Translations under genes and position numbers: made by a program | Assembly: GCA_963749285.1 (NCBI GenBank) | Contig: CAVVMD010000002.1 | Location: 1,025,275-1,089,274 of the forward strand | From: an uncultured Solirubrobacterales bacterium | GTDB taxonomy: Bacteria; Actinomycetota; Thermoleophilia; Solirubrobacterales; Solirubrobacteraceae | Direction of reading: 5' to 3' | Length of the DNA: 64,000 bases | Shown: piece by piece, positions 3-32,446 of the stretch | Position numbering within the stretch: position 1 is the first letter of the stretch | Layout: every line of letters starts with the position of its first letter | Notes under the pieces: generated by a model | Seen by the model: only the letters and a program-made list of their open reading frames with translations | The model's database searches: none | What the model was told of the DNA's origin: nothing

Positions 3-1589
3 TACGTGGGCGAAGCGGGGGAGTACCTGGCGCGCGAGCTCACGCAGCTGGGGATTGAGGCGCAGATCGCCGGCCGGGCCAAGCACTTCTACTCGATCTA
101 CTCGAAGATGACGAAGAAGGGGCGCGAGTTCAACGAGATCTACGACCTCACCGCGATGCGCGTGATCGTCGACTCGGTCAAGGACTGCTACGGGACCGTC
201 GGCGCGATCCACTCGCTGTGGAAGCCGCTGCCCGGCCGCTTCAAGGACTTCATCGCGATGCCCAAGTTCAACATGTACCAGTCGCTGCACACGACCGTGA
301 TCGGGCCGGAGGGCCGCCCGCTCGAGATCCAGATCCGCACGCAGGAGATGCACGAGATGGCGGAGTTCGGGGTCGCGGCTCACTGGATGTACAAGCACCT
401 GCCCGGCTCCGAGCGCAGTGGGCGGGATAGCCACAGGACGGGTTCGCCCGAGGACGCAAAGCTGCAGTGGCTGCGCTCGATGCTCGACTGGCAGAAGGAG
501 CTCTCAGACCCGCAGGAGTTCATGGACACGCTGCGCACGGACCTGTTCGAGGACGAGGTGTATGTGTTCACACCGAAGGGCGAAGTCAAGTCGCTGGCGG
601 CGGGCGCGACGCCGCTGGACTTCGCCTATGAGGTTCACACCGAGATCGGCCACCGCTGCGTGGGCGCGCGTGTGAACGGCAAGATCGTGCCGCTGCACTG
701 CGAGCTGCGCAGCGGAGACATCGTGGAGATTCTCACCGCCAAGCGCGAGCGCGGACCCTCGCGCGACTGGCTGGCGATGGTCAAGACCACGCGCGCCCGC
801 AACAAGATCAAGGCGTGGTTCAAGGCGGAGTCCCGCCAGGACACCGAGCACACCGGGCGCGACCTGCTGCAGGAGCACCTGCGCAAGCAGGGCCTGCCGG
901 CGCAGAAGATCACCGGCTCGGCGCTGCTGGCGGACGTGATCCGCGAGGTCGGCTATCGCAAGGCGGACGATTTCTACATCGCCCTGGGCGCGGCGAAGGT
1001 CTCGCCGAAGGTGGTCGTCAACAAGGTGATGCAGCGCCTGAAGCAGGGCGAGGCCGCCGACGGCGACGCCACCGGAGCCGAGCTCTTGCGGGTTGGGCGC
1101 CCGCGCCGACGCCCCACGAAGTCCTCCGGGCAATATGGGATCAAGGTGGAGGGCGTCGAGGATGTGATGCTGCGCTTGGCGAAGTGCTGCCGGCCCGTGC
1201 CGGGCGATGAGATAGTCGGCTACATCTCGCTCGGGCGTGGCATCACGATCCACCGCGAGGACTGCCCCAACGCGGTGATCCTCGCGCGCGACCCGGAGCG
1301 CTTTGTGAGCGTCTCCTGGGAGGGAGAGCGCAGCACGGCGTTCATAGTCGAGATTCAGATCGACGCGTGGGATCGCCACCGCCTGCTCGAGGATCTCTCG
1401 CGAGTGTTCTCGGAGTCGGGCGCGAACATCCTGGAAGCGCGCTGCCTGTCAAGCCCGCCGATGGTCAAGAATCGGTTCGTGGTCGAGGTCGCGGACACGC
1501 ACACCTTGAAGGGTGCGATCACGCGACTGAGAAACATCGAGTCGGTCTTCGACGCCTACCGGGTCACTCCGGGCGGCGCCGTAGCGTAG
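3..1589 (+). CDS. rel: (p)ppGpp synthetase/hydrolase Rel (RelA/SpoT family), 5' part outside window
   Basis: Synthetase motifs GRAKHFYSIYSKM, PKFNMYQSLHT and EIQIRT; TGS domain (FAYEVHTEIGH); CC-containing ZFD (LAKCC..PGDEIVGY); C-terminal ACT; TAG at 1587-1589. Confidence 0.97.
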   Translation, partial: YVGEAGEYLARELTQLGIEAQIAGRAKHFYSIYSKMTKKGREFNEIYDLTAMRVIVDSVKDCYGTVGAIHSLWKPLPGRFKDFIAMPKFNMYQSLHTTVIGPEGRPLEIQIRTQEMHEMAEFGVAAHWMYKHLPGSERSGRDSHRTGSPEDAKLQWLRSMLDWQKELSDPQEFMDTLRTDLFEDEVYVFTPKGEVKSLAAGATPLDFAYEVHTEIGHRCVGARVNGKIVPLHCELRSGDIVEILTAKRERGPSRDWLAMVKTTRARNKIKAWFKAESRQDTEHTGRDLLQEHLRKQGLPAQKITGSALLADVIREVGYRKADDFYIALGAAKVSPKVVVNKVMQRLKQGEAADGDATGAELLRVGRPRRRPTKSSGQYGIKVEGVEDVMLRLAKCCRPVPGDEIVGYISLGRGITIHREDCPNAVILARDPERFVSVSWEGERSTAFIVEIQIDAWDRHRLLEDLSRVFSESGANILEARCLSSPPMVKNRFVVEVADTHTLKGAITRLRNIESVFDAYRVTPGGAVA

Positions 1590-1609: not shown

Positions 1610-1727
1610 CGGACGGCGCATGCGCCGTCCGCGAAGCCGCACATGTGCGGCTTCGGGCGGGGCGCGCATGCGCGCCCCGCGCAGGGCCGCATGCGGCCCT
1701 GCTGGTCATGCCGTATACGGCATGACC
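1610..1727. repeat. Array of five adjacent perfect loopless palindromes (22-24 bp each)
   Basis: CGGACGGCGCA|TGCGCCGTCCG 1610-1631; CGAAGCCGCACA|TGTGCGGCTTCG 1632-1655; GCGGGGCGCGCA|TGCGCGCCCCGC 1657-1680; GCAGGGCCGCA|TGCGGCCCTGC 1681-1702; GGTCATGCCGTA|TACGGCATGACC 1704-1727. Confidence 0.97.
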
Positions 1728-1771: not shown

Positions 1772-2776
1772 TTATGCGAGCACGTTGAGCGCGCCCGGCA
1801 GGATCGAGTAGCGCGCTTGCGAGGTCTCGCCGAGATAGTCGCCGTCGACCTGCAGCGGCAGCGGGCGCTCGTCGGTGGAGCTCACGGTCAGCTCGGTGAA
1901 CCCCGGCAGGCCCGTGACCTGGCGGTGGCGGCTGACCCGCGCGCCGCGCGCGAATGCGCGCAGGCCGATCGTGGGCATCGACAGGGGTGTGGCGCGACGG
2001 AGCACGCAGCCACACAGCTCGCCTGAGTCGAGCGTGGTGCCGTCGGCGATCTCGATCGGGCGGTTCTGGAAGTAGGTGAACGGCGAGCCGTTCTGGACGA
2101 TCGCGGTGACGCCTGTGTGACTGTCCTCACCCGCGAGCACCACCTCCATGCGCGGGGGATTGACGAGGTAGCGGCGGGCGAACGTGCGCAGGGCCACCCA
2201 GGTGAAGTAGTACGCGCCCAGACGCGCCTTCAGGCGCGGGTTGGCGTCGACCCGCTCGACGACGCTCGCGTCAACGCCGAGGCCGGATGCGAACGTGAAG
2301 CAGCGGCGATCGGCGAGGATGTCCTGCGCGCCATCGGCGCTGACGACGCCGAGGTCCACGCGGCGGGGGCGCCAGTCATCGGCGAGCGCGAGCAGGTGCT
2401 CGGTGGCGTCGACGAGCTCACCGGGGATGCCGAGCATCTTGGCGAACACGTTCGCCGAGCCGCCGGGGAGGCAGGTCAGCGGCGTGGGGGAGCCGAGCAG
2501 CCCATTGGCGGCTTCGTTGACGGTGCCGTCGCCGCCGAAGGCGACCACCACGTCATAGCCCTCGTGCGCCGCCTCGCGGCACAGCTCGGTCGCATGGCCG
2601 CGAGCCTCGGTATCGACCGCATCGACCTCGAACCGGCCCTGCAGCGCATACACGACGAGATGGCGCAGACGGTCGGAGACAGTGGTTGCGTACGGGTTGA
2701 CGATGATCAGCATGCGCCGCTTGACCGCGGGGGCCTCGGGCTCGAAGTCGTCGGCCACGTCGGCCGGCTCAGTCAT
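1772..2776 (-). CDS. Diacylglycerol kinase-family lipid kinase (DAGKc)
   Basis: IIVNP, AFGGDGTVNE, LPGGSANVFA and QVDGD motifs; start placed at ATG 2776. Confidence 0.9.
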   Translation of the reverse strand: MTEPADVADDFEPEAPAVKRRMLIIVNPYATTVSDRLRHLVVYALQGRFEVDAVDTEARGHATELCREAAHEGYDVVVAFGGDGTVNEAANGLLGSPTPLTCLPGGSANVFAKMLGIPGELVDATEHLLALADDWRPRRVDLGVVSADGAQDILADRRCFTFASGLGVDASVVERVDANPRLKARLGAYYFTWVALRTFARRYLVNPPRMEVVLAGEDSHTGVTAIVQNGSPFTYFQNRPIEIADGTTLDSGELCGCVLRRATPLSMPTIGLRAFARGARVSRHRQVTGLPGFTELTVSSTDERPLPLQVDGDYLGETSQARYSILPGALNVLA

Positions 2777-2889
2777 GTGCGCGGCGTGCGTGCTGAGAGA
2801 GGGGGAGGCGCTCATCTGAAGCGCCCTACACCGAGCCCGCCCGGGCGTTACCGTTGACCCGCCAGGCGCGGTCCTCGCACGGTGTGCGC

Positions 2890-2917
2890 TTGCATCCGTC
2901 CGCATGCTTGCTAAACT
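2890..2917 (+). promoter_or_regulatory. Putative sigma-A promoter upstream of the SAM riboswitch
   Basis: TTGCAT (2890-2895), 16 nt spacer, TG-extended TAAACT (2912-2917). Confidence 0.6.
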
Positions 2918-2935
2918 GCCCCGCTACATAGCAGG

Positions 2936-3024
2936 ACACATCAAGAGGGGTGGAGGGACTGGCCCGATGAAGCCCCGGCAACCACCGTCTAGCGGCGGGA
3001 AGGTGCCAATTCCAGAAGATGTGT
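2936..3024 (+). ncRNA. SAM-I (S-box) riboswitch aptamer, P4 apparently absent
   Basis: P1 ACACATC/GATGTGT; canonical core ATCAAGAG-GGGTGGAGGGACTGGCCCGATGAAGCCCC-GGCAACC...GGTGCCAATTCC; only AGAA between AATTCC and the P1 3' strand. Confidence 0.92.
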
Positions 3025-3090
3025 GGCGGGCTTCGTGCCTTTCGCCACACCGTTTGCAACTGGCGAAGGTCTTCAAAAGGAGCCCCTATC

Positions 3091-4356
3091 ATGGCTGTGA
3101 GGAATCTGCAGTGCAAGGAGTGCAAGTCCGAGTATCCGCTGGAGGCGCTGTACGTGTGCGAGCGCTGCTTCGGGCCACTGGAGGTCACCTACGACCACAG
3201 CCGCCTGGCCGGTGGCGACATCGACGAGTTGCGCCGGCGGATCCAGGCGGGACCGCAGAACATCTGGCGTTACGCCGACTTCCTGCCGCTCCCGGGCGGC
3301 CCACCCGGCCCGTCGGGCAGGCTGGCCTCACGCGTGGGCCTGCCGGCCGGGTGCACGCCGCTGATTCGCGCCGACAGGCTGGCGGCGCGGTTGGGGTTGC
3401 GCGAGGTGTGGGTCAAGAACGACGCGGCCAACCCGACCCACTCGTTCAAGGATCGCGTCGTGTCGGTGGCCGCGGCGCGCGCACGGGAGCTGGGCTTTCA
3501 GACGATCGCGTGCGCCTCGACGGGCAACCTCGCCAACTCGGTGGCGGCGCACGGGGCGGCGCTGGGGCTCGAGTCCTACGTGTTCATCCCGGCCGATCTG
3601 GAGGAGCAGAAGGTGCTCGCGACGGGTGTGTACGGGACGAAGCTGATCGCGGTGCAGGGCAACTACGACGACGTCAACCGCCTCTGCACTGAGCTGTGCG
3701 CCGAGCGCGACTGGGCATTCGTGAACGTGAACCTGCGCCCGTACTACGCGGAGGGCTCAAAGACGCTGGCGTTTGAGATCGCCGAGCAGCTCGGCTTCGA
3801 GCTGCCCGACCGCATCGTCGCGCCGATCGCTTCGGGGTCGCTGTTCACGAAGATCGGGCGTGGCTTTGAGGAGTGGCGCGATGTCGGCCTGCTGGACGGC
3901 GAGCTGCCGAAGATGAACGGCGCCCAGGCCGAGGGCTGCTCGCCCGTGGCGAGCGCATTCGCCTCCGGCCACGACGTGTGCAGGCCGGTCAAGCCGGACA
4001 CGATCGCCAAGTCGCTGGCGATCGGCAACCCCGCCGACGGCCCGTACGCGCTGGAGCTCGCCCGCACGAGTGGTGGCACGGTTGATTCCGTCAGCGACGA
4101 GGAGATCCGGCAGGGCATCGCCCTGCTCGCACAGACGACGGGTGTGTTCACCGAGACCGCCGGCGGCGTGACGACAGCGGTGCTTGCAAAGCTGGCCGCG
4201 CGCGGGGACATCGACCCCGATGAGCGCGTCGTGCTCGCGATCACCGGCGATGGTCTGAAGACGCTCGACGCCGTGCGGGACACGTTCGAGACGCACACGA
4301 TCGACCCGACCGTCGAGTCATTCGAGACGCGAGTGCCCGAGGCCGTCGCGGTCTGA
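3091..4356 (+). CDS. thrC: Threonine synthase-like PLP enzyme (fold type II) with N-terminal CxxC...CxxC
   Basis: NPTHSFKDR (PLP lysine), CASTGN, EGSKT, GSGS-like ASGSL; RBS AAGGAG at 3077-3082. Confidence 0.88.
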   Translation: MAVRNLQCKECKSEYPLEALYVCERCFGPLEVTYDHSRLAGGDIDELRRRIQAGPQNIWRYADFLPLPGGPPGPSGRLASRVGLPAGCTPLIRADRLAARLGLREVWVKNDAANPTHSFKDRVVSVAAARARELGFQTIACASTGNLANSVAAHGAALGLESYVFIPADLEEQKVLATGVYGTKLIAVQGNYDDVNRLCTELCAERDWAFVNVNLRPYYAEGSKTLAFEIAEQLGFELPDRIVAPIASGSLFTKIGRGFEEWRDVGLLDGELPKMNGAQAEGCSPVASAFASGHDVCRPVKPDTIAKSLAIGNPADGPYALELARTSGGTVDSVSDEEIRQGIALLAQTTGVFTETAGGVTTAVLAKLAARGDIDPDERVVLAITGDGLKTLDAVRDTFETHTIDPTVESFETRVPEAVAV

Positions 4357-30397: not shown

Positions 30398-31740
30398 TGG
30401 CCGCCAACTCCCTCATCCACGGGCCGAGCACCCCGGCCGAGCTGCTGCTGGCAGACGTGCACGCCCTGGACCCCCGCGCCGATCTCGACGCGCGCTGTGA
30501 CGTGCTCGTGCGCGATGGACACATCGCCGAGCTCGGTGAGCCCGGCGCCATCGAGGGACCCGAGGGAATCGAGACGGTCGAGGGTGCGGGCCGGCATCTG
30601 CTGCCCGCATTCGTCGACCCGCACGTGCATCTGCGCACCCCTGGGCAGGAGCACAAGGAGGACCTGGAGACGGGTACCCGCGCGGCGGCGGCGGGGGGGT
30701 TCGGCGCGGTGATCGCGATGCCGAACACAGACCCCGTCATCGACTCTGCTCCGCTGCTGCGATCGCTACGCGACGCCGCCGCGCGCGAGGCGCGCGTCCC
30801 GGTCGGGTTTCTCGCGGCGATCACGCGCGGGCTGGCGGGGGAGGATCTGACCGAGATGGCCGAGCTGCGCGAGCAGGGCGCGCTCGGGTTCACCGACGAC
30901 GGCCGGCCCGTGTCGAGCGCCGGGACGCTGCGCAAGGCGCTGCAGTACCAGCGCCTGTGCGGCGGTGTCATCAGCCTGCACGAGGAGGACCCGACGCTGT
31001 CGCACGGGGGCTCGATGTGCGAGGGGTCAGTCAGCGCGGCGCTCGGCATCGGCGGGATCCCGACGGTCAGCGAGTCCACGATGGTCGCGCGCGACGCTGA
31101 GCTGGCGGTGTACGAGTCCGCGCGTGTCCACTTCCAGCACCTCAGTTGCGCGGCGTCGGTGCAGGCGCTCGCGCACGCCCGATCCGCCGGTGCTCGCGTC
31201 AGCGCCGAGGTCACGCCCCATCATCTGCTGCTCACCGACGAGTCCGTCCGTGGCCTGGACACGCGCATGAAGATGAACCCACCGCTCGCCGGCGAGTCCG
31301 ACCGCCAGGCGCTGATCGCGGGTCTGCGCGAGGGCACGATCGACTGCGTCGCCACCGACCACGCTCCCCACGCGCGCGAGGAGAAGGAAGTCCCGTTCGA
31401 GCAGGCCCCTATGGGCACGACCGGCCTCGAGACCGCGTTCGCCGCGCTGTACACCGGCCTGGTCCTCACGGGCGAGCTGCCGCTGGGACTGCTCGTGCAG
31501 CGGATGACCGCGGGCGCGGCCCTGTTCGGACTCCCGACCCCCACGATCGCCACGGGCGAGCCGGCCAACCTGACGCTCGTGGATCTCGACGCCGAGTACC
31601 TGGCGGGCGAGCGCGGCTGGGAGAGTCGCTCGGAGAACTGCTGCTTCGCCGGGCGACCACTGCACGGGCGCGTGCTGCTGACCCTGGCAGCCGGCGCGGT
31701 TGTGTATCGAGAGCGCGTGTTCTCGGTGGTGGCCGCATGA
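30397..31740 (+). CDS. pyrC: Dihydroorotase
   Basis: DPHVHLR, AMPNT, KMNPPL and ATDHAPH motifs. Confidence 0.97.
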   Translation: MAANSLIHGPSTPAELLLADVHALDPRADLDARCDVLVRDGHIAELGEPGAIEGPEGIETVEGAGRHLLPAFVDPHVHLRTPGQEHKEDLETGTRAAAAGGFGAVIAMPNTDPVIDSAPLLRSLRDAAAREARVPVGFLAAITRGLAGEDLTEMAELREQGALGFTDDGRPVSSAGTLRKALQYQRLCGGVISLHEEDPTLSHGGSMCEGSVSAALGIGGIPTVSESTMVARDAELAVYESARVHFQHLSCAASVQALAHARSAGARVSAEVTPHHLLLTDESVRGLDTRMKMNPPLAGESDRQALIAGLREGTIDCVATDHAPHAREEKEVPFEQAPMGTTGLETAFAALYTGLVLTGELPLGLLVQRMTAGAALFGLPTPTIATGEPANLTLVDLDAEYLAGERGWESRSENCCFAGRPLHGRVLLTLAAGAVVYRERVFSVVAA

Positions 31741-31861
31741 CCCAATGTCCAGAACGCGGCGATCGAATGCGGGGCCGGACGCCCCGCGCCCACGACCCGC
31801 TTGTCCAACTCACCCGCGCGGATGCGACCCACCCAAACACCCTCGCTTACGCCTCCCACGG

Positions 31862-31903
31862 GCGTGCATGCACGCGGGACCGACCACGCGCGCGTGATCG
31901 GTC
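31862..31903. repeat. Two adjacent loopless palindromes
   Basis: GCGTGCA|TGCACGC 31862-31875; GACCGACCACGCG|CGCGTGATCGGTC 31878-31903 (one mismatch). Confidence 0.8.
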
Positions 31904-31921
31904 GGACGGGAGACGCGAGCG

Positions 31922-32446
31922 ATGAGTCTGCTCGACCGCGACCGTACTGCCCTCGTCGTCGTGGACGTGCAGGAGGGGTTCAGGTCCTACGGCTCGTTCG
32001 CCGGTGTCGCCGACGCCGCTCGCAAGCTCGTGCAGGCCGCGCGCATCCTCGAGCTGCCGAGCATCGTCAGCGAGCAGTACCCGCGTGGTCTTGGCCATAC
32101 CGCACCCGAGGTCGGGTTGCAGGAGGAGCGGCCGATCGAGAAGACCGTGTTCTCCGCAGCCCGCGCGGACGGGTTCGATCTGGGCGGATGCTCACAGGCG
32201 ATCGTGTGCGGGATCGAGACGCACGTGTGCGTCAGCCAGACGGTCCATGACCTGCTCGGCCAGGGCGTCGAGGTGCATGTGCCCGCGGACGCGGTCGGCT
32301 CGCGGCATCGGATCGACTACGAGCGTGGCCTCGAGCGATTGGAGCGCGCGGGCGCCGTGGTCAGCACGGTCGAGGCGGCGCTGTTCGAGCTGCTGGAGCG
32401 CGCCGGCACGCCCGAGTTCAAGGCCGTCCAGAAGCTGATTCTTTGA
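31922..32446 (+). CDS. Isochorismatase-family cysteine hydrolase
   Basis: VVVDVQ, EQYP.GLG.T, EK..FS and CGIETHVCV motifs. Confidence 0.92.
   Translation: MSLLDRDRTALVVVDVQEGFRSYGSFAGVADAARKLVQAARILELPSIVSEQYPRGLGHTAPEVGLQEERPIEKTVFSAARADGFDLGGCSQAIVCGIETHVCVSQTVHDLLGQGVEVHVPADAVGSRHRIDYERGLERLERAGAVVSTVEAALFELLERAGTPEFKAVQKLIL

Follow-up and report, generated by a model that had tools for sequence, protein, structure and literature searches.

Five adjoining perfect palindromes downstream of rel are one copy of a dispersed, lineage-restricted repeat family in uncultured Solirubrobacterales

We analyzed a 64,000-nucleotide stretch of DNA (the window) from an uncultured bacterium of the Solirubrobacterales, in which a 118-bp tract of adjoining perfect palindromes lies between the 3' part of rel and a convergent lipid kinase gene. 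An earlier note, made from the letters of the window, had placed the tract between convergent rel and DAG-kinase genes, and Pfam domains and the list of open reading frames (ORFs) agree with this. The features of the locus, in window coordinates, are the following.

3-1589, plus strand: 3' part of rel (RelA/SpoT), from the ORF list, with Pfam domains RelA_SpoT, TGS, RelA_AH_RIS and ACT_4
1590-1771, no strand: whole rel/lipid-kinase spacer, 182 nt, taken as the inserted segment
1595-1609, no strand: G-rich left flank GGGTGCGGTGGGGGC, part of the inserted spacer and predicted 5' half of an outer stem
1610-1631, no strand: unit 1, perfect palindrome with 11-nt arms CGGACGGCGCA and TGCGCCGTCCG, core CGCATGCG
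1632-1655, no strand: unit 2, perfect palindrome with 12-nt arms CGAAGCCGCACA and TGTGCGGCTTCG, core CACATGTG
1657-1680, no strand: unit 3, perfect palindrome with 12-nt arms GCGGGGCGCGCA and TGCGCGCCCCGC, core CGCATGCG
1681-1702, no strand: unit 4, perfect palindrome with 11-nt arms GCAGGGCCGCA and TGCGGCCCTGC
1704-1727, no strand: unit 5, perfect palindrome with 12-nt arms GGTCATGCCGTA and TACGGCATGACC, core CGTATACG
1728-1744, no strand: right flank CTCCAAAAGCGTCACCC, 3' half of the outer stem in the centroid fold
1772-2905, minus strand: convergent gene for a DAGK_cat/YegS-like lipid kinase, with Pfam domains DAGK_cat and YegS_C

A letter-by-letter check of positions 1610-1727 found the five adjacent, loopless palindromes that the earlier note had described, all perfect and gap-0, with arms of 11, 12, 12, 11 and 12 nt and with 0, 1 (G1656), 0 and 1 (T1703) nt between successive units. 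The centers also are as had been claimed, four being CATG and one TATA. The array starts 20 nt downstream of the rel stop codon (TAG, 1587-1589) and ends 44 nt from the stop of the lipid kinase gene.

To determine how common such palindromes are, the 3.40-Mb assembly (three contigs, 67% G+C) was searched position by position for perfect palindromes of gap 0. Those with arms of 11 nt or more numbered 294, compared with 3 in block shuffles of the genome, which bears out the estimate that a single unit has a per-site chance of about 1e-6. Arm length showed a sharp peak at 12 nt (191 cases), followed by 11 nt (63 cases), and of the 325 palindromes whose arms reach 10 nt or more, 249 were centered on CATG. 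The palindromes fall into 49 arrays of 3 to 7 units with a period of 23-26 bp, mostly 24. Of approximately 262 units in these arrays, 242 (92%) are perfect over 11-nt arms, 15 have one mismatch and 5 have two; the totals leave out an A/T-only tract at C3:1141150-1141800. The possibility that this was a unique locus therefore fails on the palindrome scan, with 49 arrays here and hundreds in relatives, and the 118-bp tract represents a single copy of a non-coding, dispersed repeat family restricted to one lineage.

Counting outward from the center, arm positions 1-4 are held to A, C, R and Y, giving the core YRCATGYR; CGCATGCG, TGCATGCA and CACATGTG are observed forms of it. Core positions 3 and 4 tolerate transitions only, so that pyrimidine-purine alternation is kept, the CGTATACG variant included. 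Arm positions 5-12 vary freely: the 242 perfect units have 162 distinct arms, and outer positions are mostly CCGG, CGGG, GGCA or TGAC. The core is approximately 98% conserved in internal units, while the arms drift. In the window array, the arm of unit 4, GCAGGGCCGCA, is the most frequent arm genome-wide. Unit 5 differs by a symmetric double transition from the GGCCATGCCGCA-type terminal unit of other arrays, and CGTATACG cores also were found in other species.

About half of the arrays carry an A/T-rich end module, which consists of (G/A)ACAAC or CACC(C/A)A, then ATCAGCTTTTT, a few bases and AAGCATGCGG; an ATCAGC-type end module was seen on 25 of the 49 arrays. Both inverted ends (AAGCTGAT...ATCAGCTT) are present on only 3-4 copies, of 173-199 bp; one complete copy lies at C3:1029254-1029452. 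These complete copies have inverted terminal modules AAAAGCTGAT / ATCAGCTTTT and are laid out as CATGCTTGnAAAAAGCTGAT and a 6-nt linker, the units, and then a linker and ATCAGCTTTTTnnAAGCATG. The window copy has only degenerate versions of the end modules. Its left flank (1595-1609), which is missing from the 6- to 12-nt spacers of the closest relatives and pairs with 1738-1744 in the RNA centroid fold, is a possible degenerate terminal linker, as judged from its resemblance to the GATGGGGTG-type linkers of other copies. Its right flank (1728-1744) is probably a degenerate copy of the CACCAAATCAGCTT terminal module, the homology having been assessed by eye. The proposal that the flanks could close an outer stem is upheld by the centroid fold, in which GGGUGCG pairs with CG.UCACCC, and by the inverted end modules found across the family.

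Unit types differ within an array, and similar orders of units recur across arrays. For these two reasons, the suggestion that the tract arose through duplication of units on the spot was not supported; rather, the arrays appear to spread as wholes. Insertion of the terminal module into the CATG of a pre-existing unit was considered and rejected, since the outer half-arms are not complementary. Nor did the terminal module qualify as a promoter or as coding sequence: no convincing -35/-10 elements were found by eye, and its stop codons lie in an inconsistent frame. At one locus (L240; C3:1957500-1957900), a four-unit array is followed by a tandem duplication, at a ~60-nt period, of the terminal module together with a broken unit (ATCAGCTTYTCAAAAGCATGTGGACCCGSCCYTTGCGGCRCATGCGCC...), which suggests that end modules can themselves multiply. 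Elsewhere in the window, at 31737-31925, the pyr operon contains a 185-nt insert with imperfect CATG- and CGCGCG-centered palindromes (GGGCGTGCATGCACGCGGG, CCGACCACGCGCGCGTGATCGGTCGG). No unit in it has 8 perfect arm bases, and it looks like a decayed copy or another hairpin element, not a member array.

Throughout the genus, rel and the lipid kinase gene are a syntenic pair, which allowed the orthologous spacer to be compared, as had been recommended. No array was observed at this site in any of 19 other congeneric species, where the spacer is mostly 0-40 nt, with unrelated repeats in a few. In the closest relatives (88-91% identity in rel), it measures 12 and 6 nt, compared with 182 nt here. 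Given the absence from the 19 species and the short spacer in most of them, the window copy is an insertion, made in this species directly after the rel stop codon. Empty orthologous sites were found in relatives for other arrays of this genome too (L057, L066, L097 and L123), and this insertion polymorphism fits the idea that the tract is the cargo of a small mobile element. A scan of JGI metagenomes returned one contig of a relative with an empty site and one unrelated arrangement and nothing else, and a search by exact sequence found no record of the lipid kinase protein.

The same spacer harbors other repeats in certain relatives. In G023 and G053 (L132 and L144), it contains a second, unrelated hairpin family with GGCCGATC...GATCGGCC or CCGATCGG-type inverted repeats. 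This family occurs in our genome as well (C2:537676-537696 and C3:1424669-1424689); it is intergenic and sometimes adjoins CATG arrays. In G058 (L130), the spacer is 237 nt long with a 41-nt direct repeat (ctacgttcagcgccgccggctgtcgcggcgccttcggcttg) at both ends, and this is another small inserted element.

In order to establish the taxonomic range of the family, genomes were searched for three RCATGY cores spaced 17-19 nt apart; the reversed pattern, used as a control, gave 0-1 matches per genome. The pattern matched 131 times in this genome and 1-158 times in each of 18 of 24 congeneric genomes; counted as arrays, copy number in the genus runs from 0 to about 60. No match was found in 16 genomes from other families of the order. 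Low-copy true arrays were present in three other genera in a sample of 51 genera of the family. When one genome per GTDB species was scanned, the matches came overwhelmingly from metagenome-assembled genomes (MAGs) of uncultured Solirubrobacterales (Solirubrobacteraceae). Scattered matches in other phyla in that scan were without arrays, and true arrays were confined to Solirubrobacterales MAGs. In these other species, 338 of 353 units are perfect, with the same period of 24 and an identical core. No match was found in 72,556 plasmids or 50,697 phages, and none of the 69 pattern matches in IMG/VR was a true array. The array-bearing MAGs come from several projects and include dozens of independent assemblies, short-read and long-read alike, which excludes a general assembly artifact. 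A full-text literature search on Solirubrobacterales repeats, tandem perfect palindromes and GCATGC repeats returned no description of the family, so that, as far as this search goes, the suspicion of an undescribed repeat system was justified.

One genome of another species (G182) also contains a young three-unit subfamily (X, then CCGGACGGTGCA, then GACCACGCCGCA) at at least nine loci (L153-L161). Its end module (..GACCAATGAGGCTGTT) provides the stop codon of the upstream gene in several copies, and some copies have an extra conserved right-hand module (GAAAAYGCCTGCCACGCGCGCGCGTGCACGC).

Many arrays are shared by orthologous loci of species whose flanking genes are 75-93% identical, and this made it possible to follow how the arms change. 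In 39 order-preserving pairs of matched units, for which homology between species was assumed from order and similarity, we counted 64 complementary differences affecting both arms and 4 affecting one arm. Of the mirrored differences, 31 were transitions and 33 were transversions. The closest pair (L030 and C3:1284247 of our genome, six units each) had mirrored differences at 8 of 72 arm positions (11%) and no unmirrored ones. The adjacent gene of this pair differs at 26% of four-fold sites and at 6% and 2% of codon positions 1 and 2, respectively, which puts arm divergence at approximately 0.4 times that of four-fold sites. Arrays between tandem genes, where a single strand is likely to be transcribed, had 1 mismatched arm pair in 1,048, so that there is no tolerance for pairs of the G·U type. 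Of the 20 imperfect units, 15 are terminal. The central dinucleotide accounts for 9 of the 23 mismatches (CACG, CTTG, CAAG, CAGG), with the arms still perfect. The at least nine copies of the G182 subfamily include several variants that are mirrored and two that are confined to one arm, and one of these two is common to two copies.

Nearly all arrays are intergenic, and a gene 3' end faces 31 of the 49 within 120 nt. They lie in 24 tandem, 15 convergent and 2 divergent gene pairs, compared with a background of 1,784, 559 and 558, respectively; gene context was taken from a crude ORF filter based on G+C at third codon positions (GC3) that covers ~82% of the genome, which weakens these statistics. 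Regular spacing, as of domain boundaries, was rejected, since the coefficient of variation (CV) of the gaps between arrays is ~0.9-1.0, as for random placement. Clusters of hairpins within ~80 nt of stop codons have been reported to act as intrinsic terminators (PMC8355165). The arrays lie within that range: the window copy is 20 nt from the rel stop, and the genome-wide median for the stop-to-array distance is 15 nt. As RNA, the window array is predicted to form five hairpins of 9-10 bp with 4-nt loops from either strand, with folding energies of -124 and -123 kcal/mol (z of -6.3 and -8.4 against dinucleotide shuffles). A complete copy is predicted to form seven hairpins closed by two outer stems (-163 kcal/mol; z of -13.5). 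Complete copies elsewhere terminate in ATCAGCTTTTT, and their outer stems are formed by an A-tract and a U-tract. Rfam gave sub-threshold matches only (ncS011, 23.6 versus 48 bits; RsmW, 38 versus 52 bits).

Taken together, these data lead us to favor, as the probable explanation, a hairpin-array element akin to REP (repetitive extragenic palindromic) repeats and bacterial interspersed mosaic elements (BIMEs) or to the miniature inverted-repeat transposable elements (MITEs), whose symmetry would be maintained by hairpin-templated correction at the DNA level and which would serve as an RNA 3'-end or terminator structure. A unit would fold back as a hairpin during replication or repair, and one arm would be recopied from the other through quasipalindrome template switching or an equivalent hairpin-templated correction of the DNA. 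A mutation in one arm would then be either erased or mirrored, so that the arms would drift quickly yet stay perfectly complementary. The central dinucleotide, as the loop, would escape correction, in agreement with the mismatches observed there, and the YRCATGYR core would be under selection, either because the loop or core is recognized or because folding nucleates there. Quasipalindromes are known to be made perfect by template switching (PMC7202029, PMC5941160), a process that has also been proposed to underlie the long-term conservation of perfect inverted repeats in Proteobacteria (PMC5941160). Recopying from a hairpin is favored by the change of the arms at a sizeable part of the neutral rate, the near lack of unpaired intermediates, the lack of wobble pairs and the lack of a transition excess, which in combination are not predicted by stepwise compensatory selection on an RNA stem. 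The palindrome-perfecting template switch of the earlier note thus stands as the best account of the mirrored arm changes; the process itself we infer from its products. Transcribed from either neighbor, an array would give a stack of stable hairpins that would stop read-through and/or protect the 3' end of the mRNA, and copies may persist just downstream of genes for this reason. A REP/BIME-like RNA 3'-end structure or hairpin-cluster terminator would be the most economical functional reading, given that arrays follow stop codons and avoid promoter regions, that the hairpins are very stable and that the outer stems of complete copies are A-tract/U-tract stems.

Several observations weigh against this explanation, as does the crude gene filter mentioned above. 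Template switching leaves the strict CATG core, the 24-bp module size and the arrival of arrays at new loci unexplained. The differences in the L030 pair are clustered by unit (0, 2, 0, 0, 3 and 3), which is not what point mutation followed by mirroring predicts. No target-site duplication was apparent in comparisons of filled and empty sites, and neither a transposase nor a REP-associated tyrosine transposase (RAYT) was found to go with the arrays. The window copy has no U-tract, and a consensus scan of both strands from 1300 to 2100 identified no promoter or terminator. The RNA role is deduced from position and predicted fold, and five to seven hairpins exceed what termination requires.

Searches for a partner enzyme covered several candidates. 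A CATG-specific methylase of the Dam class was rejected, since PF02086 is absent from this genome and its profile is unrelated to array counts. A recurrent neighboring gene was sought by clustering the 1,079 ORFs that lie no more than 2.5 kb from 129 arrays; cluster size reached 11 members at most, and no transposase-like family emerged. An autonomous element with the same ends was not found either, as nothing but arrays or ordinary genes was enclosed by AAGCTGAT...ATCAGCTT pairs separated by up to 4 kb, and self-BLAST revealed no multi-copy insertion sequence (IS) in the genome. The arrays are not a CRISPR, as had been stated at the outset: there is no constant repeat beyond the 8-bp core, there are no spacers and the units abut. 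A Streptomyces-type telomere was rejected because the arrays are internal and the contig ends are ordinary and without palindromes.

Other explanations were weighed against these data. The arrays could be selfish or neutral MITE-like repeats without a host function, whose hairpins serve their own propagation or are a mutational by-product. We regard this as possible, if on the unlikely side. It would suit the range of 0-158 pattern matches among congeners, the varying presence and absence at orthologous sites, the random chromosomal placement (gap CV of 0.92-0.99), the variable number of units and the decayed look of some copies, and purifying selection against promoter disruption alone would be expected to leave few arrays in divergent spacers. 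Arrays have nevertheless been kept at the same loci where the flanks are only 75-88% identical, despite the deletion bias of bacteria, and no mobilizing enzyme was found; moreover, the core is conserved while the arms drift, which implies selection on something. The array might instead be a device that works at the DNA level. The periodic 8-bp alternating pyrimidine-purine core (CGCATGCG and the like) could be a site where a dimeric protein binds or modifies the DNA, or it could nucleate cruciforms or Z-DNA in response to supercoiling behind transcribed genes, with arm symmetry either needed for extrusion or a by-product of palindromy growing outward from the core. Strict Watson-Crick pairing on both strands even between tandem genes, mirrored changes with equal transitions and transversions, and the restriction to transitions at core positions 3 and 4 are all in keeping with such a device, which we nonetheless consider unlikely. 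The spontaneous extrusion of 12-bp arms at 70% G+C as cruciforms is poor, a spacing of 24 bp does not match an integral number of helical turns, and CATG and GCATGC are neither depleted nor enriched outside arrays. No candidate protein was found, a D12-class adenine methylase not tracking the arrays. In favor of the device, its location at gene 3' ends is like that which gyrase-binding BIMEs of Escherichia coli are said to have (PMC2817692), and template switching has been reported to extend arm identity (PMC3820800).

Ordinary selection on RNA hairpins, with stepwise compensatory substitution and no correction of the DNA, would account for arrays after stop codons and for the great predicted stability of the hairpins. 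It is improbable, however, given arms that change at ~0.4 times four-fold divergence with almost no intermediates; on population-genetic grounds, two-step compensation under selection that removes intermediates should run far below the neutral rate. The near absence of G·U-type pairs even where one strand alone should be transcribed and the parity of transversions and transitions also speak against it. We think it very improbable that the arrays are REP/BIME elements mobilized by a RAYT (Y1 transposase) or remnants of a hairpin-recognizing transposon of the IS200/IS605 type. They share with such elements a G+C-rich, short, extragenic, palindromic and clustered form, dozens of copies per genome and lineage specificity, but the units are perfect, spacer-free and variable in sequence. 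PF01797 (RAYT, Y1) had no match in our genome or in the array-rich genomes G003 and G023, although control genomes were matched, and among array-bearing congeners there was a single match, in G019. Together with the lack of a GTAG/CGTC tag, this agrees with the view that the tract is not a classical REP. A terminator evolved in place at this locus, or an assembly artifact, is scarcely credible: the position between convergent genes would suit a terminator, but 49 homologous arrays have unit types and end modules in common, many independent assemblies contain the family and 19 relatives lack the array at this site. More speculatively, the arrays could be the substrate of a dedicated structure- and sequence-specific enzyme system that recognizes the RCATGY loop or core of folded units and nicks or recopies the arms, thereby both moving whole arrays and enforcing symmetry, or they could be cruciform or Z-DNA-prone modules that buffer supercoiling behind genes; we doubt that either is so. 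If a dedicated enzyme does exist, it would constitute a new hairpin-handling system and define a new class of hairpin-based mobile or self-maintaining DNA without RAYT, IS200 or integron machinery.

Other features of the window and the genome were noted. A S-adenosylmethionine (SAM) riboswitch (RF00162; 79 bits, E value of 5.5e-18) lies at 2935-3025 on the plus strand of the window, just upstream of a 445-amino-acid ORF (3019-4356). The A/T-only tract at C3:1141150-1141800 extends for ~650 bp (poly-A, (TAAAA)n, (TATAA)n and inverted forms) in this 67% G+C genome and lies next to large blocks of paralogous genes (C3:1143940-1163127 and 1867840-1887445). Either the tract is genuine and palindromic, with A and T only, or it is an artifact of long-read assembly. 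A 13.7-kb inverted duplicate with 98.5% identity occupies C2:13769-27513 and C3:43617-57367, on the two large contigs. Contig C1 (1-3033) overlaps the end of C3 (2044757-2047789) over 3 kb at 99.97% identity, and therefore C1 probably joins C3.

Dispersed palindromic repeats such as REP, BIME and MITE sequences are known mostly from Proteobacteria and Firmicutes and are recognized by their conserved sequence. The present family can be recognized only by its form, in which perfect symmetry goes with a module of 24 bp and a core of 8 bp, and it will therefore escape repeat finders that rely on sequence. With hundreds of units in dozens of species, it offers a many-fold replicated natural experiment on how inverted repeats remain perfect. 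Because arm substitutions are nearly always mirrored and occur at a sizeable fraction of the neutral rate, the long-discussed template-switch correction of quasipalindromes can be measured directly in wild genomes. The arrays also are a source of compact, highly stable, symmetric hairpin stacks, which may serve as bidirectional insulators in high-G+C hosts, and a marker for an uncultured soil lineage.

Among known systems, the attC sites of integrons come close: they are imperfect palindromes of variable sequence whose folded single-strand structure is conserved and recognized. They flank gene cassettes and have extrahelical bases, R and L boxes and an IntI integrase, none of which applies here. 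The BOX elements of Streptococcus pneumoniae (boxA, n copies of boxB, boxC), Correia/ERIC-type repeats and MITEs are modular and non-autonomous like this family, with inverted terminal modules on the few complete copies, a variable number of internal units, intergenic location and large folds when transcribed. In contrast to MITEs, we found no target-site duplication, related autonomous IS or multi-copy transposase in the genome, and unlike in BOX elements or MITEs, the internal units are individually perfect palindromes with mirrored changes. REP and BIME elements (PMC2817692, PMC3733652) are likewise G+C-rich, short extragenic palindromes in tens to hundreds of lineage-specific copies; they form head-to-tail clusters after genes and between convergent genes, and roles in termination, mRNA stabilization and DNA topology have been proposed for them. 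A REP is, however, an imperfect palindrome of 20-40 nt with a loop, a conserved sequence, a GTAG/CGTC tag and a RAYT gene, and BIMEs alternate in orientation with linker motifs, whereas the units described here are perfect, spacer-free and abutting at 24 bp, with only an 8-bp core in common, hypervariable arms and no RAYT.

Archetypal Streptomyces telomeres also are actinobacterial and have several abutting palindromes, which are tightly packed in the last ~170 nt and, as single-stranded DNA, fold into hairpins (PMC4513846). They form the ends of linear replicons, where terminal proteins bind and prime, and have conserved sequences and small purine-rich loops, whereas the arrays occupy ~50 internal intergenic sites. 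Hairpin-cluster terminators are alike in that two or more hairpins, separated by less than 15 nt, lie no farther than ~80 nt from a stop codon and a U-tract is optional (PMC8355165); they are locus specific and mostly consist of two hairpins, whereas the arrays form a dispersed family of homologous copies in which the loop is conserved and the DNA perfectly symmetric. Finally, quasipalindrome correction (the Ripley model; PMC7202029, PMC5941160), a mutational mechanism rather than an element and one not described as maintaining a family of tandem palindromes, resembles what we observed in that it predicts mirrored, sometimes multi-base changes and lasting perfection.

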